Position numbers and translations under genes: made by a program
In this document: in pieces, positions 2,095 to 20,617 of the stretch
Layout: each line of letters begins with the position of its first letter
Position numbering within the stretch: the first letter of the stretch is position 1
Assembly: GCA_938044295.1 (NCBI GenBank)
Contig: CALIRC010000010.1
Span: forward strand, 1-32,083
Direction: 5' to 3'
Source of the DNA: Minisyncoccota bacterium
Lineage (GTDB): Bacteria; Patescibacteriota; Minisyncoccia; Moranbacterales; GCA-2747515
Length of the DNA: 32,083 bases
The notes under the pieces: model-generated
Told to the model about the DNA's origin: nothing
Database searches by the model: none
The model's input: only the letters and a program-made list of their open reading frames with translations

Positions 2095-2214
2095 ATTATT
2101 TTGTATTGATGAGACTGCATCACTGCTAAATCAGTTTGATATGTAGTATGCATAAATCTCACAACTGTATTATAGATCTATTGTACGATAGGATGAGAGT
2201 TTTTCATAGAAATA

Positions 2215-2289
2215 GGACTTACACACGTGAGTGTAATTTTAGGCAAAATCGAAGCTTTTCACGAAAAAGTACACCAAGTGCGTAAGCCC
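2215..2289 (-). ncRNA. structured repeat element, copy 1 (75 nt); unknown family
   Basis: About 80 percent identical to the ends and core of 8686..8802. The terminal 12-bp and adjacent 6-bp helices pair fully, with G-U pairs, only on the minus strand. Confidence 0.5.
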
Positions 2290-2290
2290 T

Positions 2291-2321
2291 AAGAAAAACA
2301 GGTAGCAATATTGCCACCTGT
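2291..2321 (-). terminator. rho-independent terminator of the 2340..2549 gene
   Basis: Minus strand reads ACAGGTGGCAATATTGCTACCTGT followed by TTTTTCTT. Confidence 0.7.
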
Positions 2322-2339
2322 CTACACATCAGTCATTTC

Positions 2340-2549
2340 TCATTTTTTTTCTTTGTCTAAATAAAAAGAAAACAACTGCAAAATTTCTGCACGAATTGCG
2401 CTAAAAGTATATTTAGCCGTCCATAGGTTAATGTATGTCGAGATTAAAACACACAAAAGTGCAACAAGATACTTTTCAGCACCTGTAATGGGCAGGAAAA
2501 AAGCTAGCACAGAAAGTACAAGCGGAAGGAGGTAATATATCAATGACAT
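2340..2549 (-). CDS. small two-helix membrane protein, hypothetical
   Basis: 69-aa ORF with two hydrophobic segments. It has its own terminator and an upstream TTGACA box (plus 2641..2646). Confidence 0.55.
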   Translation of the reverse strand: MSLIYYLLPLVLSVLAFFLPITGAEKYLVALLCVLISTYINLWTAKYTFSAIRAEILQLFSFYLDKEKK

Positions 2550-2732: not shown

Positions 2733-3968
2733 ATGAAAAACGAACATAAGATCCTTATTATTGGTGGTGGCTTCGCTGGTGTTAAATGCGCACAAAAACT
2801 CTCGAAACAGCACTTACCAGAAGGCACGCAAATTAGAATCGTAAGTAACCGCGAGCACTTTGAGTATCACGGAGCACTCTACCGTGTGGCTGCTGGAAAT
2901 ACGCCACTAGAAGTATGTTTTCCACTAAGAGAAATTATCGATACACAAAAAGTCGATATTATCCACGATACAGTAACCAAGATCGAGAAGAAAAAGAATC
3001 AGGTAAAGGGTGCAAGTGGATCCACATATAGATACGATACACTCGTAATAGCCCTTGGAGCACAGACCATCTATTTCGGTATTCCTGGACTCCGTGAAAA
3101 TGCACATGGCATGAAAAGCATCGATCGTGCAATTGGACTCAAAAATCACATCATAGAAGCAATAGAGAGTTGCGCACACAGCAAAGAAGGCAAAGAAACA
3201 TGCGGTACAAACTTTGTCGTTGTTGGGGGTGGTGCTACAGGCGTCGAAGTTGCAGGGGAATTAGTAGAGTATGCAAAAAAACTCTCTACTATGCACGGGA
3301 ATGATCCAAGTAATGTACATGTGGACCTCGTAGAGGCGCAGAATCGCATACTAGGATTAATGCCTGAAGAATTCGCAAAAAAAATGCACAGACGTCTCCA
3401 AGATCTTGGTATCAACGTCATGACAGATACAGCAATTACAGAAAGTGAAGCGCAGGGAGTACTGCTAAAGGGAAAGAATATGGAATCCAAAATTGCTGCA
3501 AAAACTGTCATATGGACAGCGGGTGTACGTGCAAATGCCCTCATCGAAGAGGCTGGCTTTACACTCGGGAGAGGGCGCAAGGCAGTGGTATGTAAACACT
3601 TACATGCCCAGGGGCACAAAAACATTTTTATGGCAGGTGATGTAGCACAAACCACGTACTCTGGCATGGCACAAACAGCACTCTACGACGGTGCATATAT
3701 AGCAGACGCAATTAGCCGTACGTTATCAGGACGAGCACTTTCGCCATACAAGCCACGAGGTGTACTCTACGCCGTCCCAGTAGGTCCAGGGTGGGCAGGT
3801 GCATCTGTTGGTTCATTAAACATGTACGGACGTATTGGGTGGTGGGTGCGGCGATTACTTGATCTTATAGTGTTTATAAAAATTGCCCCACTAGACAAAG
3901 CATGGCGTGCTTTTGGTGCAAAACATGAGGCAGGTGAACTATGTGATCATTGTAAAAAGGAAGAGTAA
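2733..3968 (+). CDS. ndh: type II NADH dehydrogenase (NDH-2), FAD-dependent pyridine nucleotide-disulfide oxidoreductase
   Basis: Two dinucleotide-binding motifs (ILIIGGGFAGV and FVVVGGGATGVE). Length and C-terminal amphipathic region fit NDH-2. The ORF opens at 2667; M23 (2733) sits just before the first Rossmann motif, so the start is uncertain. Confidence 0.85.
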   Translation: MKNEHKILIIGGGFAGVKCAQKLSKQHLPEGTQIRIVSNREHFEYHGALYRVAAGNTPLEVCFPLREIIDTQKVDIIHDTVTKIEKKKNQVKGASGSTYRYDTLVIALGAQTIYFGIPGLRENAHGMKSIDRAIGLKNHIIEAIESCAHSKEGKETCGTNFVVVGGGATGVEVAGELVEYAKKLSTMHGNDPSNVHVDLVEAQNRILGLMPEEFAKKMHRRLQDLGINVMTDTAITESEAQGVLLKGKNMESKIAAKTVIWTAGVRANALIEEAGFTLGRGRKAVVCKHLHAQGHKNIFMAGDVAQTTYSGMAQTALYDGAYIADAISRTLSGRALSPYKPRGVLYAVPVGPGWAGASVGSLNMYGRIGWWVRRLLDLIVFIKIAPLDKAWRAFGAKHEAGELCDHCKKEE

Positions 3969-4003
3969 AAGAAAAAAATCGCTTTTTTTCGCAGGAAATC
4001 TTG

Positions 4004-4012
4004 TGGTATACT
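4004..4012 (+). promoter_or_regulatory. extended -10 promoter element TGgTATACT
   Basis: The 14-mer TGTGGTATACTAAA occurs here and again at 4487..4500, each about 30-40 nt upstream of an ORF start. Confidence 0.4.
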
Positions 4013-4044
4013 AAACTGGTAAATCGCATATAAAGTCTAATCAT

Positions 4045-4368
4045 ATGGCTGATATAGCAAAGTACGTCGTAGACGTGGCAAAGTACACGGATAGTGTAAA
4101 TGAAGATGTGGTTGCGACAATCGTGAAAAACCTCGCTCCTGTCCTGGGTCGGCGTGATGCAATGCTCGTTTCCTGTAGTGATGAGAAAGAGCTACAGACT
4201 GTTCGTAAGAACTTCATTGAAAAAAAGTGTGGTGTAGATGCAAATGATGAAAAAGCAAAGGCTGCAACAGATGCAGTATGCGAAAGAATGAAAGACGATC
4301 GAACAAAAAATCGTGTAACATTCTACTACCTTCTAGCAGAGGAATTAAGGTGTCTTGGGAAATTCTAA
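4045..4368 (+). CDS. small cytoplasmic protein, DUF2853-like
   Basis: 107-aa ORF. From memory, the layout (SxSDxKELxTVxxNFxxKKxG ... FYYLLAE) resembles the DUF2853 family. A clean terminator follows. Confidence 0.65.
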   Translation: MADIAKYVVDVAKYTDSVNEDVVATIVKNLAPVLGRRDAMLVSCSDEKELQTVRKNFIEKKCGVDANDEKAKAATDAVCERMKDDRTKNRVTFYYLLAEELRCLGKF

Positions 4369-4410
4369 AGATTTCAAAAAATCAACTGAATGCACGAGAG
4401 ATTCTCGTAT

Positions 4411-4437
4411 AAAAAACCACCGTTAAGGTGGTTTTTT
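4411..4437 (+). terminator. rho-independent terminator
   Basis: AAAAAACCACCgttaaGGTGGTTTTTT. Confidence 0.8.
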
Positions 4438-4487
4438 AGCCTGTTAATATCTCGCAGTCAAAAAGTTGTGGTTTTTTAGTAGAAATG

Positions 4488-4496
4488 TGGTATACT
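4488..4496 (+). promoter_or_regulatory. extended -10 promoter element TGgTATACT
   Basis: Second copy of TGTGGTATACTAAA, 41 nt upstream of the ATG at 4538. Confidence 0.4.
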
Positions 4497-4537
4497 AAAA
4501 TCATTAAAAAAGAGGAAAAACCTCAAAAAACAAAAAT

Positions 4538-4639
4538 ATGAAAGAAGACTCAGCACATAATATGGTACTCTTTGCAGTTTTTGCAACAGCAGTTTCTGTT
4601 ATGCTAAGAAGCTATATCGATTTCGTTGTAACAGTATAG
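4538..4639 (+). CDS. candidate 33-aa hydrophobic peptide (MKEDSAHNMVLFAVFATAVSVMLRSYIDFVVTV)
   Basis: Hand-found ORF below the track cutoff. It is bracketed by its own extended -10 element and a terminator and has a single TM-like stretch. No Shine-Dalgarno sequence. Confidence 0.3.
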   Translation: MKEDSAHNMVLFAVFATAVSVMLRSYIDFVVTV

Positions 4640-4663
4640 TATACGATTTTACAGATCACATAT

Positions 4664-4690
4664 CAAAAACCACCTATTATAGGTGGTTTT
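4664..4690. terminator. bidirectional rho-independent terminator between convergent units
   Basis: AAAAACCACCTAttATAGGTGGTTTTT, with an A-run on one side and a T-run on the other. Confidence 0.75.
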
Positions 4691-4707
4691 TGATATAGAT
4701 GAGATAA

Positions 4708-5889
4708 TTAATATATAATAATCGGTGTACCAACGTCAGCCCAAGCATAGAGTTCAGCAGAGTTTTCAGAGTCATGTCGCACACACCCTGGAGAAACGGC
4801 CGCATCGATACTTGCAATTGATTCTTTTCCACCACCTGGCGAGTTTGGGAAATCAGGGTGATTAGCCGGCCATTCAACAAGATCATGGATACCGTAGAGA
4901 CCATCAGGGGTAAATGCCATCCAGTAGGGGAGGTAGACACCAAATGAGCGTGAGATTGGACGGAGGCCTTTATTTTCAACTTTAAATGTACCGGTAAGTG
5001 TAGGTGTCTCTTTTGCGCCAGGGGAATTCACAAAACTCTTGACTGCAACGCCATCTTCAAAGAGGGTGGTGAGGCGAGCATTGAGATCTATGTCAATGTA
5101 CTTCCCTTCGGTAACTTTCGGTATGACACGTTCAACGGCAAGTGTAGTGCGCTCCTGCGCTTCTTTTGGCCAGATGGTAGGCTGTGGGAGGCGCGCCTCG
5201 AATGTAACCTTACCTATAGGATAGAAATATGCATTAGATTGCTCTTTTTGCTTTGCATAGACGATAAAGTCCATAACCTTTGCAGTTTCTGTAACGCCTT
5301 TAATGGTCGCGCGCAATACTCGCTCAGAGGGTATAAGTTCTTGCTCAAGAGGGAGAAGGTCTCTTCCTACAATCCGAAAGTCAAAACTCTCAACACTACG
5401 ATCTAAGATAACATCAAATGATTTTCCATTCTCGATAACAAAGTCTTTTACATCAGCATTCGGTTCTTGAGCAGTAATTTGCGGATACCCATCAGAGCGG
5501 AAACTATAAAACGTTGAGGGGCCATCAGAATCGCCAAGTGTTAGCGCAATACTGTAGTGAGTACCAGGCGCCCACGTTGTATGAGGGGAAATCGAGAGAG
5601 TGTGGAATGTATCATCCCATTTTGTTTCAATAGGGTGGCTAGGGTAGATATCGACGTGGACAGATTCGCTATTGACTGGTGCATCGAAAATAAAAACAAT
5701 TTCTGTATCTGACACAAGGCGCGCATCAGAAACTGTATGAGGAGGAAGTTGTGCGGAAGCAGTCTCCGAATATTGTGCGCCTCCAAGGAGGGGCTTCGTA
5801 GAAAAATCAACCGGCGTGTGGAGGGGTGCACCAAGCGTACTAATGGGCACAATGATAAGTGCGTACGCAAAAAGCTTATTCTGTGCCAT
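4708..5889 (-). CDS. L,D-transpeptidase (YkuD-domain) protein, secreted
   Basis: The C-terminal catalytic region has the conserved His (YGIHD) and Cys (SPGCVRH) motifs of YkuD domains. M55 (5889) begins a signal-peptide-like MAQNKLFAYALIIVPISTLGA. The 54 codons up to 6051 look like non-coding composition. Confidence 0.8.
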   Translation of the reverse strand: MAQNKLFAYALIIVPISTLGAPLHTPVDFSTKPLLGGAQYSETASAQLPPHTVSDARLVSDTEIVFIFDAPVNSESVHVDIYPSHPIETKWDDTFHTLSISPHTTWAPGTHYSIALTLGDSDGPSTFYSFRSDGYPQITAQEPNADVKDFVIENGKSFDVILDRSVESFDFRIVGRDLLPLEQELIPSERVLRATIKGVTETAKVMDFIVYAKQKEQSNAYFYPIGKVTFEARLPQPTIWPKEAQERTTLAVERVIPKVTEGKYIDIDLNARLTTLFEDGVAVKSFVNSPGAKETPTLTGTFKVENKGLRPISRSFGVYLPYWMAFTPDGLYGIHDLVEWPANHPDFPNSPGGGKESIASIDAAVSPGCVRHDSENSAELYAWADVGTPIIIY

Positions 5890-7753: not shown

Positions 7754-8572
7754 TTAATGACCCCGCACTGCACCAATTGCAGTAAAAAAATCATTTGCAA
7801 TTTCATAGTACGCTTTTGCAAGCTCACGACCACCCTCTTTTGGGTCAGCACGTCTAGCGACGAAACTGAGACTCTTAAGTGCGATATCAATATTTCCGTC
7901 AATACCGCGATATTCAAAAGCTTCATGCAGCATTCTTTTAAGATGTCTCGTATCATTCTCTAAATGCTCAGCATAAAGAAATGCGTAGTGCAAGTCATAG
8001 GTTTTGCCTTCTGCAACAAATGCATGCATGCCAACTACCGCTGCTTCTAATTGCTGGTAACGGATTGTACGAAGACTAAATTCCTTTGAATGAAAAGCCT
8101 TGAGCATTACATTTTTTTTTGCAGCATACAAACGGCGAAGCTCCTGAGGGTCACTATAAAATGCTCGAAAATGCCCCTCAAGTGAAGCAGAAGATGCTTC
8201 TAATTGCGCTTGCAAAACTGTGCTTACTTTGCTCATCACCTGAAAGCGGCATCCATAAGAATATTTCCCAAGAATCGCCTTACAAAAGACATCATCTTCT
8301 ATAGAGCCGATGACATCAGTACGCCAGTTAGACAATATGAGCCATACATACTCATCAGAAAGAGTTTTTTCCGCAATCAAACGTGTCATAGCGTTCGTTG
8401 CATTTTCAACTAATTCTTCGTTTGATTTGGGCTGCGATATAACTATTCCTAGAAGGAATAAAAAGGTAAGTACTGCAATTAACACACGTGAAGAAAAAGA
8501 AGAAAAGGGGAGTAATTTCAAGAGATCAGAGAGGTCTCCATCATATCGATTCGACTTATTTGTAAGGTACAT
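7754..8572 (-). CDS. hypothetical membrane-anchored protein with a helical extracytoplasmic domain
   Basis: The track ORF 7754..8614 begins at a TTG. The ATG at 8572 is preceded by AGGAG at 6-nt spacing, so I call that start. One N-terminal TM helix; no family recognised. Confidence 0.65.
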   Translation of the reverse strand: MYLTNKSNRYDGDLSDLLKLLPFSSFSSRVLIAVLTFLFLLGIVISQPKSNEELVENATNAMTRLIAEKTLSDEYVWLILSNWRTDVIGSIEDDVFCKAILGKYSYGCRFQVMSKVSTVLQAQLEASSASLEGHFRAFYSDPQELRRLYAAKKNVMLKAFHSKEFSLRTIRYQQLEAAVVGMHAFVAEGKTYDLHYAFLYAEHLENDTRHLKRMLHEAFEYRGIDGNIDIALKSLSFVARRADPKEGGRELAKAYYEIANDFFTAIGAVRGH

Positions 8573-8623
8573 ACTGTACTCCTGGTGAAAGAAGGAAAAA
8601 AACTTGGAATCCAAGCTGAAAAT

Positions 8624-8652
8624 ATAATAGTATATTTCAAAGAAAAAGTCAA
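8624..8652 (-). promoter_or_regulatory. promoter TTGACT-17 nt-TATTAT on the reverse strand
   Basis: Plus-strand AGTCAA at 8647..8652 and ATAATA at 8624..8629. It lies between repeat copy 2 and the 8572 start. Confidence 0.6.
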
Positions 8653-8685: not shown

Positions 8686-8802
8686 GGACTTACGCACGCG
8701 AATATAATTCTAGGCTAAATCAAGGCTTTCACGAGCCATAGTCTAATTATGGTGAGGAAAAACGTAGGTTTTAACGATAAAGTACACCAAATACGTAAGT
8801 CC
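8686..8802 (-). ncRNA. structured repeat element, copy 2 (117 nt, with an internal insertion of about 42 nt)
   Basis: Same termini and core as 2215..2289. The insertion, about 8735..8776, carries its own hairpin CCATAgtctaatTATGG. Confidence 0.5.
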
Positions 8803-9728: not shown

Positions 9729-9929
9729 ATATAAAAATACTATGGGAAAAATACGAGACTACATAAGAGAAAAGTGTGCAGCAATACTGCTCAGAATCTT
9801 GTATTGGCTCGGATACGACGACAAAGGACACTAATGCACATACAGAAAGAAAAATGCATTGAGAAAGCCTTGATGAAATAAATATAGTTTGATAGGGTTT
9901 ATATGATCGTTCTACGAGGAGGGTAAACC

Positions 9930-13651: not shown

Positions 13652-15514
13652 ATGAAAAATAAATTTCGTGGTTTAGGTGCATCGCGAGTAAACGGACGCG
13701 TTTACAGTTTTGTTGCCGACAAAAACAATCCTGCAGATACGTTTATCGTTCAGTCCAGTAGTGACGGACGTGTTTTCGTACCACACAGCTCCCAGGCGCG
13801 GATAAGCAGTGTAAATCTCCCAATCGATACGCTGGAAACCTGCTCACATTTTCATGTATCTTCCCACGATGACTACTATTACTTAACATACCAAGCAAGT
13901 AAAGCATCGCAGAAGTCACTTCTCCTCGCGCAGTCAACAGACTTGATTAACTGGGAGAAGATGACAGTTGTCTCAGAAGAAAAAACCAATGCAAAGGTGA
14001 TCCCAGAATATACATTCAAGGATCATCTCATGATGTACGCTGGCGGAAAGACAATTAGCCTCCTTGCATCGGACAATCTTATGCACTGGTATGAAGAAGC
14101 ACCAGATGTGATTGGCAGTGCAAAAGAGGGAAAAGAATACATTATAGCAGACATTAAAATCCTTGATGAAGGGATTTTTCTCATTTACTACGAAGCATTA
14201 CATGTTGGAGCTGAGTCAGCTCAGGCTTATAAGCTCAAAGCTGCACTTTTTCAGAGAGACAATCCGCGCAAAGTTCTGTGGAAGAGTAAGAGAAATCTCC
14301 ATAAAGTGCACGATGATGGAGAGAAACTCCTCCACCCTTTCGCGATGGTCACGCTCGACGATGCTTTTGTGGCATATTGGCAATCAGCAGATGATACACT
14401 GCAACTTTTCTATCATCAGTTTAAAGGATCACGTCTCGACATTGCGCACAAAGCAAAAGAAAAAAAGTGGAAAAAAGAAGAACTACCTCAACTCGAGCGG
14501 TCTGATGCTAATCCAATCATGGCGCCAAAGAAAGAACATGTGTGGGAATCAAAAGCAGCATTCAATCCAGCAGCAATTTTTGTCAACGGTGTTTTTCACA
14601 TACTCTATAGAGCGATTGGCGATGGTGATGTGTCAGTGCTGGGCTATGCGCAGAGTGAAGATGGTATAAACATTACAAAACGTTTAGATCATCCAGCATA
14701 TGTACCGAGGGAAATATTTGAAGGTGCCCTCAAACCACAAAATAAGGTAGACCACAAAAATTGGTCACCGTTCATGTCTGGTGGTGGAGCATGGGGTGGG
14801 TGCGAAGACCCGCGTCTAAATCGCATGGGAGATAGGATTTATCTCACATATGTCGCATATAACGGTTGGCAACCTCCACGCCTTGCAATGTCCTGGATTA
14901 CAATCACTGATTTCCTCGCGCATAACTGGAACTGGTCAAAACCAGTGCTCATATCTCCACCAGGTGTCGTGTCAAAAAGTGGATCGATGCTACCAGAAAA
15001 AATCGACAATCACTATGTATTTTTCCACAGAGTGTTCCCAGATATTCATATTGACTTCATCGACGACCTTGATCGTTTTGATGGAAAATCATTCTTCCTA
15101 AAGTGTAAGGAAAGCATAAAAGTACGTGAAGATCAGTGGGATGCAGGTAAGTTCTCCATGGGCGCACCACCAATGAAGACTAAAGATGGATGGCTTGTAA
15201 TCTATAGCGCCGTCTCTGGGAGGCAAGAGTGGAAGGGGAGTGATCTCAGATACAAAATTGGTGCAATGCTCCTCGATCTAAAAGATCCAACAAAAGTAAT
15301 TTATAGATCAAATGACGCAGTACTCGTACCAGAAACACATTACGAAAACGAAGGAGCAAAGCCAGGTATCATTTATCCATGCGGCGCAGCAATCAAAGAA
15401 AACACGCTATTCGTCTATTATGGAGGCGCAGATGAGTTTACGTGTGTCGCAACAGCAGATCTCCCTACATTTTTAGAAAAATTAAAAGTAACTGGTAAAA
15501 TAGAGAGTGAATAA
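13652..15514 (+). CDS. two-domain GH130-like glycoside phosphorylase/glycosidase; the N-terminal propeller is degenerate
   Basis: The C-terminal half has the GH130-type signature (GGCEDPRLNRMGDRIYLTYVAYNG, FNPAAI, YYGGAD). The N-terminal half has propeller-like repeats but no EDPR motif. Confidence 0.8.
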   Translation: MKNKFRGLGASRVNGRVYSFVADKNNPADTFIVQSSSDGRVFVPHSSQARISSVNLPIDTLETCSHFHVSSHDDYYYLTYQASKASQKSLLLAQSTDLINWEKMTVVSEEKTNAKVIPEYTFKDHLMMYAGGKTISLLASDNLMHWYEEAPDVIGSAKEGKEYIIADIKILDEGIFLIYYEALHVGAESAQAYKLKAALFQRDNPRKVLWKSKRNLHKVHDDGEKLLHPFAMVTLDDAFVAYWQSADDTLQLFYHQFKGSRLDIAHKAKEKKWKKEELPQLERSDANPIMAPKKEHVWESKAAFNPAAIFVNGVFHILYRAIGDGDVSVLGYAQSEDGINITKRLDHPAYVPREIFEGALKPQNKVDHKNWSPFMSGGGAWGGCEDPRLNRMGDRIYLTYVAYNGWQPPRLAMSWITITDFLAHNWNWSKPVLISPPGVVSKSGSMLPEKIDNHYVFFHRVFPDIHIDFIDDLDRFDGKSFFLKCKESIKVREDQWDAGKFSMGAPPMKTKDGWLVIYSAVSGRQEWKGSDLRYKIGAMLLDLKDPTKVIYRSNDAVLVPETHYENEGAKPGIIYPCGAAIKENTLFVYYGGADEFTCVATADLPTFLEKLKVTGKIESE

Positions 15515-15571: not shown

Positions 15572-17530
15572 ATGCGTGTCAAAAGATTTCCCAACAATCC
15601 TATTCTTGGTCCAGATAGAGATCATCACTGGGAAGCGCAGGCAGTGTTCAATGGCTGTCCAGTAAAAGATGATGAGGGTAACTACCATTTGTTGTATAGA
15701 GCTCAGTCTTACGAACAAACACATCATGGTGTACTTATGGAGCTTTCGACAATCGGCCACACTAAGAGTGCAGATCATCGCAGCTTCAATGGAGAGCGCA
15801 CACAACTCATCTTTCCAGAAGAAGAATGGGAGAAATTTGGCTGTGAAGACCCGCGTGTGACAAAAATTGACGACACATATTACATCATCTATACAGCGCT
15901 CTCTGATTACCCACATTCACCAGATGGCATCAAACTCGGTGTGGCTGTAACGAAAGACTTCAAGACGATTGAAGCCAAACACCAGGTCACACATTTCAAC
16001 TCCAAGGCAATGGCACTATTTCCAGAAAAAATCGACGGAAAGTACTATGCAATTCTCACAATGAACACAGACAAGCCGCCAGTGCGCATTGCAGTAGCTG
16101 CATTTGATCGTATAGAACAGATGTGGAGTAAAGACTATTGGGATCAGTGGCTTGAAAGAATCGATGCCCACACAGTACATTTGCAGCGCTCTCTCGTCGA
16201 CCATATTGAAATAGGTGCGCCGCCAGTTAAAACAGACGAAGGCTGGCTCCTGATGTACTCATACATCAGAGGGTACAAAACTGATCATCCCATTTTTGGC
16301 ATCGACGCTGCTTTACTTAAAAAAGATGATCCTAGAAGAATTGTGGGTCGCACATCAAAACCAGTAATGACACCACAAGAAAGCTATGAATATCATGGCA
16401 TGGTACCAAATATCGTTTTTCCTTCTGGTCTGCTGAAAGAGGGGGATAACCTCCATCTTTTCTATGGTGCAGCTGATGATTCAGTTGCTGTCGCTGATCT
16501 GTCTTGTAAGGAAATTATTGAGAGGGTGCGACACAAGAAGTGTGAGGACTTTGTAGGAGATGGCGCATTGCCAGTGCAATTGGAGCGATTTGAAGGCAAT
16601 CCAATTATCGAGCCACAAGGGCATGGATGGGAATCTAAGTACACGCTGAACCCCACAGCAATCCGTGATGATGAAAAAACGTACATCCTCTACCGAGCAC
16701 AAGATGAAAATGACACATCATATGTAGGACTTGCTATTTGTCCAGATGGATTTCACATCGATGAAAAACTTTCCGAACCAATCTATATTCCTCGTGTGCC
16801 TGAAGAGGTACGACATGAGCCAGGATTTTCTGGCTGTGAAGACGCTCGCATTACACGCATGGGAGAGCGATTTTACTTGAACTACACTGCGTACAATGGG
16901 CATGATAATGCACGTGTCGCCTTTTCCTCCATCAGTGTAGACGATTTCCGTGCACGTAATTGGGATCAGTGGGACTTACCTCAGATTATTTCACCACCAG
17001 AAGAGTTTGACAAAAACTCCTGTCTTGTAGAAGAAAAAATAAACGGCAAGTACCTCTTCTTCCATCGTCTCAGAAACGACATCTGGATCGACTACGTTGA
17101 CTCACTAACATTTCCTGAAGGGAAATATTTAGGTGGTAAAATTCTCATGAGTCCACGTCCAGAAACATGGGATAGCATACGTATCGGCATTGCAGGACCA
17201 CCGATAAAAATAGACAAAGGTCATGGTGAAGGACTGTGGGTGCTGATCTATCACGCGATCTCAGAATATGATGGTATGTATCGTCTCGGTGCAGCATTGC
17301 TTGATCTTGAAAAAGGAGAAGTAGTATCACGTCTCGATTATCCAATTCTCACGCCAGAGGCAGACTACGAAAACAATGGCCTCAGACCAGGAACTGTCTT
17401 TTCTTGTGGGCAAGTAATCATCGACGAAACACTCTATGTCTACTACGGCGGGGCAGACCAAGTAACTTGCGCAGCGAGTATGGATTTCCAGTGTCTCGTA
17501 GACGCACTTAATGAAAAACGTCATAAGTAA
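15572..17530 (+). CDS. tandem double GH130-like glycoside phosphorylase/glycosidase
   Basis: Both halves carry the signature: GCEDPRVTKIDDTYYIIYTA and GCEDARITRMGERFYLNYTAYNG. Both end in Y(Y/F)GAAD/YYGGAD. It is a paralog of the preceding gene. Confidence 0.85.
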   Translation: MRVKRFPNNPILGPDRDHHWEAQAVFNGCPVKDDEGNYHLLYRAQSYEQTHHGVLMELSTIGHTKSADHRSFNGERTQLIFPEEEWEKFGCEDPRVTKIDDTYYIIYTALSDYPHSPDGIKLGVAVTKDFKTIEAKHQVTHFNSKAMALFPEKIDGKYYAILTMNTDKPPVRIAVAAFDRIEQMWSKDYWDQWLERIDAHTVHLQRSLVDHIEIGAPPVKTDEGWLLMYSYIRGYKTDHPIFGIDAALLKKDDPRRIVGRTSKPVMTPQESYEYHGMVPNIVFPSGLLKEGDNLHLFYGAADDSVAVADLSCKEIIERVRHKKCEDFVGDGALPVQLERFEGNPIIEPQGHGWESKYTLNPTAIRDDEKTYILYRAQDENDTSYVGLAICPDGFHIDEKLSEPIYIPRVPEEVRHEPGFSGCEDARITRMGERFYLNYTAYNGHDNARVAFSSISVDDFRARNWDQWDLPQIISPPEEFDKNSCLVEEKINGKYLFFHRLRNDIWIDYVDSLTFPEGKYLGGKILMSPRPETWDSIRIGIAGPPIKIDKGHGEGLWVLIYHAISEYDGMYRLGAALLDLEKGEVVSRLDYPILTPEADYENNGLRPGTVFSCGQVIIDETLYVYYGGADQVTCAASMDFQCLVDALNEKRHK

Positions 17531-19678: not shown

Positions 19679-19717
19679 TATACTTAAATAATTCATTTGA
19701 TTCACGTAAAAAAAGTA

Positions 19718-20461
19718 ATGTCATTGAAAATCGTCTCTTTAAATATAGAAAAGGACAGACATCTTGATCGCGTCATCCCATTTTTGAAACAAAAAGTAGA
19801 TGAGGGATATGAAGTATTTTGTCTGCAAGAGGTTTACAAAAGAGACTTAGCAAAACTAACAAAGGTAATCAGTGGTAAGAAATTTTTCTCGGAGTTTTTT
19901 CCAATGTGTAGATACACTGGAGAGCCACAAGAGGACTTAGATGAAGTGCAAGGCCTTGCTATGATCTACGTAAAACTACCATTTGCCATAGATAAGTTTC
20001 CATATTACAAAGATACGCCTGAACTGCCGCTGCATCCAAAAGGTTATGCACAGCTACACGCAGGAATAATTGTAAGCACATTTCGCACTGAAGGTATGAA
20101 TTTTCAGATTGCTACTACGCACTTTCCTGTTGCACCAAATGGGGCAACAGATGAACGTCAAAAAGAGGCCCTAAGAAAAATGCTTGCTAAACTATCAAAT
20201 ATTGAAGATTTAGTATTTTGTGGTGATTTCAATGCACCAAGAGGTAGAGAGGTTTTCACCAAAATAGCAAGTTTGTATAAAGACAACATCCCAGCAGAAG
20301 TGACGACAACAATCGATGGCAATTATCACAAGGCGGGAGATTTGCCCTACGTCGTTGATGGATTATTCACCACAGCGCACTATGATGTAGTGAATGTCGA
20401 GATCGTAGATGGCCTCAGTGATCATAAGGCGATCACTGCGGAAGTGACAAAATCAACTTGA
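19718..20461 (+). CDS. endonuclease/exonuclease/phosphatase (EEP) family protein, paralog 1
   Basis: EEP motifs SLNIE, CLQEV, TTHF, CGDFNAPR and SDHKAI. The track ORF opens at a TTG (19697); the first ATG is at 19718. Confidence 0.8.
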   Translation: MSLKIVSLNIEKDRHLDRVIPFLKQKVDEGYEVFCLQEVYKRDLAKLTKVISGKKFFSEFFPMCRYTGEPQEDLDEVQGLAMIYVKLPFAIDKFPYYKDTPELPLHPKGYAQLHAGIIVSTFRTEGMNFQIATTHFPVAPNGATDERQKEALRKMLAKLSNIEDLVFCGDFNAPRGREVFTKIASLYKDNIPAEVTTTIDGNYHKAGDLPYVVDGLFTTAHYDVVNVEIVDGLSDHKAITAEVTKST

Positions 20462-20490: not shown

Positions 20491-20617
20491 AGGACTTCCT
20501 CACTTTAGTGCAATGTGAGGTACAAATACTCCTTTTTCTCTAAGGCGTACTGATGACGTACGTCGTCAGAAAAAAGAGTGTTTATAAAAGGAGCAGTGTG
20601 CAAAGTGAGGAAGTCCT
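20491..20617. repeat. 127-nt nested imperfect palindrome
   Basis: Outer 16-bp perfect arms AGGACTTCCTCACTTT/AAAGTGAGGAAGTCCT. Inner arms are CTCCTTTT/AAAAGGAG and CTCT/AGAG. The central 20-nt palindrome CTGATGACGTACGTCGTCAG lies at 20550..20569. Confidence 0.6.

Follow-up and report, generated by a model that had tools for sequence, protein, structure and literature searches.

The three related intergenic elements found in the window, the whole stretch of 32,083 nucleotides analysed here, are probably members of an undescribed, dispersed family of MITE-like palindromic repeats and not a dedicated regulatory RNA. The best reading is that of a family new in sequence and of known type, closest in kind to the ERIC and Correia elements. 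The original prediction described two copies of a structured element, taken as an RNA or single-stranded DNA fold selected on the minus strand. A real, recurring and hairpin-forming element was found; the structured RNA of two copies gave way to a family with at least 22 full copies.

Copies in the window

The sequence of the window is that of ordinary chromosomal DNA from a candidate-phyla-radiation (Patescibacteria) bacterium, with genes for a beta-CASP RNase-like protein, an ECF sigma factor, MscL, a class II aldolase, GH130 enzymes, BipA and an efflux system. Three copies are present, all in the same absolute orientation. The common orientation used throughout takes the minus strand of the window as the A strand for all three copies and the opposite strand as B.

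2215..2289, minus strand: copy 1, 75 nt, a short, internally deleted family member
8686..8802, minus strand: copy 2, 117 nt, of the same subfamily as copy 1
20492..20616, minus strand: copy 3, 125 nt, well preserved

Copies 1 and 2 were read directly in the sequence where they had been predicted, both of them intergenic and upstream of minus-strand ORFs. Their minus-strand alignment runs from end to end, save for a 42-nt insertion in copy 2, and the homology breaks off sharply at the element ends. Copy 1 is flanked by TA on both sides (2213-2214 and 2290-2291), copy 2 has an intact TA flank on one side only. On the minus strand helix 1 comprises 12 bp in both copies (GGGCUUACGCAC/GUGUGUAAGUCC in copy 1 and GGACUUACGUAU/GUGCGUAAGUCC in copy 2), and helix 2 comprises 6 bp (GGUGUA/UACACU and GGUGUA/UAUAUU, respectively), with the pairs exactly as first quoted. 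The copies differ at four pairs of helix 1 and two of helix 2, and the observation that all these differences are switches from Watson-Crick to G-U pairs on the minus strand, appearing as A/C mismatches on the plus strand, holds as well.

An inner hairpin, with a conserved CGUG loop, had been thought to exchange its whole stem between the copies. This is not covariation: the 5' arm of this hairpin in copy 2 lies inside the 42-nt insertion, the two stems stand in different registers, the interior is not kept across the family, and the apparent swap is an artefact of that insertion. A 12-nt direct repeat, AGGYTTTMACGA, is located at both bounds of the inserted segment (8723-8734 and 8766-8777), which points to an origin by slippage or duplication, not by a second mobile insertion. 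Both copies appear to be old, partly deleted and mutated members of a window-specific subfamily.

The element does not occur just twice, as had been supposed: a mismatch-tolerant search for the terminal 12-mer revealed copy 3 (inverted pair 20492/20616), and dozens more exist elsewhere. Copy 3 has a perfect 15-bp terminal inverted repeat (GGACTTCCTCACTTT/AAAGTGAGGAAGTCC) and begins 31 nt (a 30-nt gap) past the stop codon of the plus-strand gene 19697-20461. The contigs of a relative (L001/L002) carry a 122-nt element (L001:3097-3218) that is 86% identical to copy 3 and resides at a different locus. Between the window and this relative, fourfold-degenerate sites in the orthologous beta-CASP genes show just 38% identity, i.e., they are saturated.

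For membership of the window copies, HMMs of the ends and a covariance model were built solely from members outside the window, which avoids circularity. The HMMs recognised copy 3 with E-values of 1.8e-6 (5' end) and 7.4e-10 (3' end), and copy 1 came next among distinct elements for either end, its ends correctly ordered and oriented. With the covariance model of the terminal domain, copy 1 scored 28.4 bits on the minus strand (2217-2287, E-value 1.7e-7) and 6.8 bits on the plus strand. Copies 2 and 3 escape this model, because a terminal-domain model cannot span long interiors, and the membership of these two is based on the HMMs and direct alignment. Copy 2 was not detected by the external end HMMs and joins the family only through copy 1, with 86% and 83% identity over the two 36-nt ends.

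Anatomy and distribution of the repeat family

The ends of the element, GGACTTnCnCACTT...AAGTGnGnAAGTCC between flanking TA dinucleotides, are common to all copies; written in the form that would bound a candidate transposase ORF, they read GGACTTTCGCAC...GTGCGAAAGTCC, again between TA and TA. All full copies, which range from 62 to 268 nt in length, have an inverted repeat of 12-15 bp, GGACTTnCnCACTT(T)/(A)AAGTGnGnAAGTCC. Each end consists of about 15 bp of conserved terminal inverted repeat followed by about 20 nt of conserved subterminal sequence. The A-strand consensus, within its TA flanks, is GGACTTnCnCACTTkGyACAC TTCTTCGTT ... GCGCCTyGAATTGCACTAAAGTGnGnAAGTCC. TA stands just outside the left end in 19 of 22 copies, outside the right end in 21 and on both sides in 18, against a background TA frequency of 0.09 in the flanks. 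Since TA is self-complementary, these flanks may equally belong to the palindrome, as its outermost pair, or represent a target-site duplication; the third flanking bases beyond TA do not repeat.

Compensatory double changes maintain complementarity between the arms throughout the family. In the outer helix, positions 7/51 are occupied by UA (11), CG (6) and AU (2), positions 9/49 by GC (10) and UA (5), and positions 15/43 by UA (11) and GC (4); the overall covariation score exceeds those of all 500 shuffles and of all slid registers. Folding z-scores lie between -3.3 and -13, on both strands. The interior is modular: it shrinks, expands and swaps modules. Short forms have arisen via internal deletion (e.g., copy 1 and L033:9101-9172), and optional interior blocks occupy fixed insertion points, some of them consisting of short units in variable number. 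ORFs inside the elements are short and spurious, and no transposase gene is among them.

Internal arrays of short units are seen in several long members (L019:4753-5020, L021:322-548, L025:777-1032 and L030:751-987). Examples of such units are CCCTCAAGGGGCA(n) and CCCGTCGCTCGCGAG paired with TGACRGGACGAG, and their count differs between copies, so that the tip of the hairpin appears to grow by unit expansion.

Exact patterns derived from copies 1 and 2 alone had no match in genome, metagenome or viral collections. A degenerate pattern of the 3' end, drawn from four sequences including copy 3 and the L001 element, recovered 31 metagenome and 6 genome stretches. About half of the matches to this pattern arose by chance and had no partner arm; after their removal at least 22 distinct full copies and about nine truncated or degenerate ones are left. 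The carriers are the contigs of the relative (L001/L002), JGI metagenome contigs and one complete genome, CP175956.1 (Candidatus Moraniibacteriota), from which one copy was recovered. In metagenome Ga0209187 at least 15 contigs bear copies, several of them two or three, with up to three per locus of 12-14 kb. All copies are intergenic and occupy non-homologous sites with unrelated flanks, and synteny of the copies between relatives is lacking. They lie next to housekeeping genes that have no relation to one another, coding for beta-CASP, Exo_endo_phos, RecA, TruB-like and RuvB proteins, class A PBP, sortase, PilB/PilO, NUDIX and M50 peptidase. No copies were found in viral contigs, phage genomes or plasmids, and a literature search by topic and by end sequence returned no description of the family, only primer coincidences.

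The element matches no Rfam family, in line with the original prediction, which could place it in no known RNA family. Neither the window nor eight family-bearing loci, canonical form included, gave a match in Rfam 15 at the gathering threshold, and the sub-threshold matches of permissive local scans were miRNA-like hairpin noise only.

Two side observations come from the metagenome loci. In L034, recA (3813-4907) lies between two family copies of opposite orientation (3464-3647 and 5011-about 5120), the downstream one truncated to a single end. In L027, the 60 nt directly to the left of a family copy (~9797-9856) are 85% identical to L014:9418-9477 from the same metagenome; this similarity may reflect a second repeat family in that organism.

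Bacterial MITEs are small, have terminal inverted repeats around a non-coding core and flanking direct repeats, occur in many intergenic copies and give rise to RNA stem-loops (PMC3184786). The elements described here have terminal inverted repeats, a size below about 400 bp with no transposase gene, multiple dispersed copies at non-homologous sites and a long predicted RNA stem-loop. At least 22 dispersed copies beside unrelated genes are what would be expected of a MITE-like repeat, not of a dedicated cis-regulatory RNA. A transposase supplied in trans may have placed the copies at TA sites of AT-rich intergenic DNA; recognition of both ends by such an enzyme would explain why the two arms change jointly. 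As the palindrome is long, any transcript crossing a copy would fold into a long hairpin, which may alter the processing or stability of the mRNA, by analogy with ERIC or Correia elements. We infer mobility, rather than demonstrate it, from the non-syntenic copies, the sharp boundaries and the 86% identity between genomes with saturated fourfold sites, as no filled/empty pair of orthologous sites was found; a search for empty sites with joined flanks led back to the same loci in other samples and to nothing else. A non-exhaustive survey of about 300 kb of family-bearing sequence revealed no transposase and no autonomous element bearing the family ends.

Conservation of the terminal 15 bp in sequence itself, the intergenic sites and a TTGCAC motif in the same direction near both ends could also speak for a palindrome bound as duplex by a protein (an operator or a nucleoid-protein site) or for an unusual terminator. 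We give hardly any credence to this, because the elements, at 62-268 nt with a variable interior, are far beyond operator size and have no regulon link, and the hairpin is followed by no U-tract. An outward or internal promoter, with TTGCAC as the -35 hexamer and the TA flank starting the -10 element, was rejected: TTGCAC agrees with the -35 consensus at three of six positions, and the promoter scan called no promoter-like site inside the canonical copy. An intrinsic terminator was likewise discarded, the 3' flanks not being U-rich and the terminator scan, run on both strands, calling none at copy 3 or at the canonical copy.

Gene context, strand asymmetry and orientation

The surroundings of copies 1 and 2 contain three further features.

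2296..2320, minus strand: terminator-like hairpin followed by a U-run (ACAGGUGGCAAUAUUGCUACCUGU then UUUUUCUU), directly 5' of copy 1 and outside the element
2180..2207, minus strand: promoter-like site ATGAAA-16-TACAAT, between copy 1 and the beta-CASP gene
8624-8652, minus strand: promoter-like site TTGACT-17-TATTAT, between copy 2 and ORF 7754-8614

The hairpin at 2296-2320 ends a 69-aa ORF (2340-2549, minus strand) and has a weak, sub-threshold, terminator-like alignment to Plastid-psbA-3. Its sole non-Watson-Crick pair is G·U on the minus strand. The ORF itself encodes a hydrophobic protein with no Pfam match; in relatives that share the neighbouring genes the spacer is much shorter and contains no equivalent of it. 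Both promoter-like sites are consensus matches only, and the total of such sites in the region is no higher than in shuffles. If the predicted promoter and terminator sites are right, copies 1 and 2 lie outside any mature 5' UTR.

The syntenic loci of relatives (L001-L006, about 70% amino-acid identity) lack copies 1 and 2, and the spacer between the Pyr_redox and beta-CASP genes measures 570 bp in the window vs 172 bp in L004. The nearest named relatives of the beta-CASP protein are from MAGs of Peregrinibacteria or Gracilibacteria, with about 50% identity, other relatives reaching about 70%; a look-up of contigs encoding the window's own beta-CASP protein found none on record. Downstream of copy 2, ORF 7754-8614 (minus strand, 286 aa) has no Pfam match and is missing from the otherwise syntenic region from sigma/anti-sigma to MscL in relatives (L001 and L005), and for this reason ORF and copy jointly resemble an insertion relative to those genomes.

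The original prediction implied a dedicated cis-regulatory RNA, or a gene for a small trans-acting RNA, preceding the beta-CASP gene and ORF 7754-8614 on the minus strand. The position of copies 1 and 2 before minus-strand ORFs and the better pairing of that strand agree with this proposal, and an RNA that matches no known family could be a new one. Nevertheless, the survey of gene contexts largely refutes it, and we regard it as very improbable: the genes flanking the family are functionally unrelated, copy 3 and many others are located downstream of genes, the orthologous genes of relatives lack the element, and scans detected neither a promoter nor a terminator of its own. Moreover, conservation resides in the stems while the interior is freely replaceable, the opposite of RNAs that bind ligands or proteins, riboswitches and leaders among them.

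The strand asymmetry that gave rise to that proposal is real in copies 1 and 2. A register-fixed count over their terminal domains yields eight non-Watson-Crick pairs of G·T type and none of A·C type. Copy 1 has a folding energy of -32.6 kcal/mol on the minus strand (z -6.5) vs -21.5 on the plus strand; the two strands of copy 2 hardly differ (-31.6 vs -30.0). At family level this asymmetry does not speak for selection of the fold on one strand, and the conclusion that selection on the minus strand alone pointed to RNA or single-stranded DNA fails on the further copies. In 13-14 of 19 distinct members helix 2 is interrupted on the A strand by two A·C mismatches, which become G·U pairs on the B strand only. 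The folding energy is lower on the B strand in 15 of 22 members, e.g., in copy 3 (B -58.7 vs A -50.3) and in the L001 element (B -68.2 vs A -48.4). Terminal-domain cells are paired in 88.3% of cases on the A strand and 92.9% on the B strand, a crude tally over whole elements gives 71 G·T vs 93 A·C pairs, and private changes in the conserved inner 14-bp helix of sense-oriented copies amount to two G·T vs five A·C. G-U-only differences between two copies of a palindrome should hence be treated with caution; they are not proof of a selected RNA.

The outer 15-bp helix behaves differently: of the cells with a one-sided change, 11 carry G·U on the A strand and one does not, this lone exception being in a copy antisense to its neighbours. 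Five of the 11 cells come from copies 1 and 2, which had prompted the hypothesis, leaving an independent count of 6 vs 1 that is suggestive and not significant; the same helix tolerates eight transversion mismatches. A mutational cause, an excess of C-to-T changes on the sense strand, gained no support from skews at fourfold sites, for which codon selection could confound the baseline.

Another asymmetry concerns orientation. Where the flanking genes run in tandem, 17-18 copies have the A strand in sense and four have it in antisense (two-sided binomial ~0.004-0.007), with well-supported flanking genes in the antisense exceptions, and many copies start 0-100 nt past a stop codon. This bias could stem from selection at the transcript level or from insertion tied to the replication strand; because genes are co-oriented, it may equally mirror the latter. 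Together with the strong conservation of ends across genomes whose neutral sites are saturated, the bias hints at a function, or an insertion mechanism, beyond passive junk.

These data bear on the possibility, which we consider unlikely, that the family is of MITE-like origin and has been kept as a sense-oriented, co-transcribed stem-loop. Such a domesticated hairpin would act in 3'-end protection, as a processing site for RNase III or RNase E, or as an insulator between cistrons, and purifying selection acting on the fold of the sense strand would account for the G-U-only changes of copies 1 and 2. The sense orientation, the proximity to stop codons, the G·U pattern of the outer helix with its antisense exception, the 8 vs 0 count in copies 1 and 2, and the composition of fourfold sites, which bears no sign of a sense-strand C-to-T excess, are all in its favour. 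The reduced independent count, the A·C mismatches of helix 2 on the sense strand in most copies, the inner-helix changes, the better folding of the antisense strand in 15 of 22 members and the tolerated transversions are not, and replication-linked insertion could equally produce the orientation bias. Furthermore, copies 1 and 2 may be absent from mature transcripts, given the promoter-like sites on the gene side of each and the terminator-like hairpin before copy 1.

A more far-reaching version, which we hold to be rather improbable, is that a MITE-derived hairpin has been recruited across several candidate-phyla-radiation lineages as an orientation-dependent signal for 3'-end or intercistronic processing and stability. 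The hairpin would be placed after stop codons, in the sense direction, with its base kept paired on the transcribed strand. Recruitment would explain the 17-18 vs 4 bias, the 86% identity and the G-U-only changes of the outer helix and, if true, would add a general signal to tiny genomes with few conventional terminators.

Strand-specific pairing and an orientation bias relative to replication would also be expected if the hairpin were recognised as single-stranded DNA, on one strand, by an HUH or tyrosine enzyme; candidates are REP/RAYT systems, a palindrome-associated IS200/IS605 derivative and an integron attC site. The asymmetric pairing of copies 1 and 2, the family-wide bias, the shared absolute orientation of the three window copies and the G·T pairs of consensus helix 2 on a fixed strand agree with this view. 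We nonetheless judge it very improbable. The asymmetries oppose each other, the outer helix favouring A and helix 2 favouring B, and the elements are whole-length palindromes with TA flanks, not subterminal hairpins beside a fixed 4-5-nt target. They have no REP-type GTAG/CGTC head, TAGGAC being preceded by A or T in most copies and by G in just three, and no attC core sites (RYYYAAC/GTTRRRY), their ends being GGACTT...AAGTCC. The neighbours examined are housekeeping genes and include no gene for RAYT, TnpA(Y1) or an integrase.

Known repeat families, significance and other repeats

The MITE-like reading, which we prefer, finds its closest parallels in two well-described families. ERIC-type elements are themselves MITEs with TA on both flanks (PMC3184786). 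The ERIC/IRU elements of Enterobacteriaceae (127-bp imperfect palindromes) resemble the present family in being imperfect palindromes over their whole length (~70-270 nt), strictly intergenic, TA-flanked and often located just downstream of, and co-oriented with, genes; they, too, form size variants by internal deletion and fixed-point insertion, are non-coding with no known cognate transposase, and are predicted to form a long RNA hairpin whose stability differs by orientation (PMC3184786). In contrast, the family described here has no sequence similarity to them (no Rfam, phage or plasmid matches), is hosted by candidate-phyla-radiation bacteria with small genomes, and has a much more modular interior with short expanding units. 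The effect of ERIC on mRNA reportedly depends on its orientation, a finding attributed to De Gregorio et al. 2005.

Transcripts of the Correia/NEMIS elements of Neisseria undergo processing by RNase III. These elements are alike in size (~100-160 nt), conserved terminal inverted repeats and TA flanks, and exist in hundreds of intergenic, co-transcribed, hairpin-folding copies with end-variant subfamilies in one genome (PMC3184786). The ends of our family are unrelated to theirs, no IHF-site-like core was recognised, and outward promoter activity is unsupported.

The IS630/Tc1-mariner superfamily prefers TA as a target. MITEs derived from it (e.g., Nezha of cyanobacteria) share with our family TA flanks that fit a 2-bp TA duplication and terminal repeats of at least 15 bp, but no IS630-type transposase with these ends was found, and an assignment to this superfamily would come from the TA flanks alone. 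REP/BIME sequences with their RAYT are likewise high-copy intergenic palindromes in mosaic arrangement with a proposed action at the level of single-stranded DNA or RNA. REPs are 20-40 nt long and carry a GTAG or CGTC head (PMC3733652), whereas the present elements span 62-268 nt, lack such a head, are TA-flanked and had no RAYT gene in sight.

The genomes of candidate-phyla-radiation bacteria are streamlined to about 1 Mb and generally thought to be poor in mobile DNA. A repeat present at about one copy per 5-10 kb and common to distant lineages can serve as a marker for assembly and binning problems, and it is also useful for strain typing and for tracing recent gene flow among these uncultured organisms. 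If the orientation bias is functional, the family would constitute a simple, widespread RNA-level signal in candidate-phyla-radiation bacteria.

The window contains other repeats as well. A long inverted repeat outside this family is located at 138-219, with 33-nt arms of 79% complementarity and a 16-nt spacer. ORF 319-627 harbours a 26-nt direct repeat (523-548 and 574-599, 96% identical, 51 nt apart), from which a tandem repeat in the encoded peptide follows. The GH130 (mannoside phosphorylase-like) genes 13652-15514 and 15572-17530 are neighbouring paralogues, each with a duplicated domain signal, and a 45-nt motif occurs three times in this region (14797, 15838 and 16831), with a spacing of about 1 kb.
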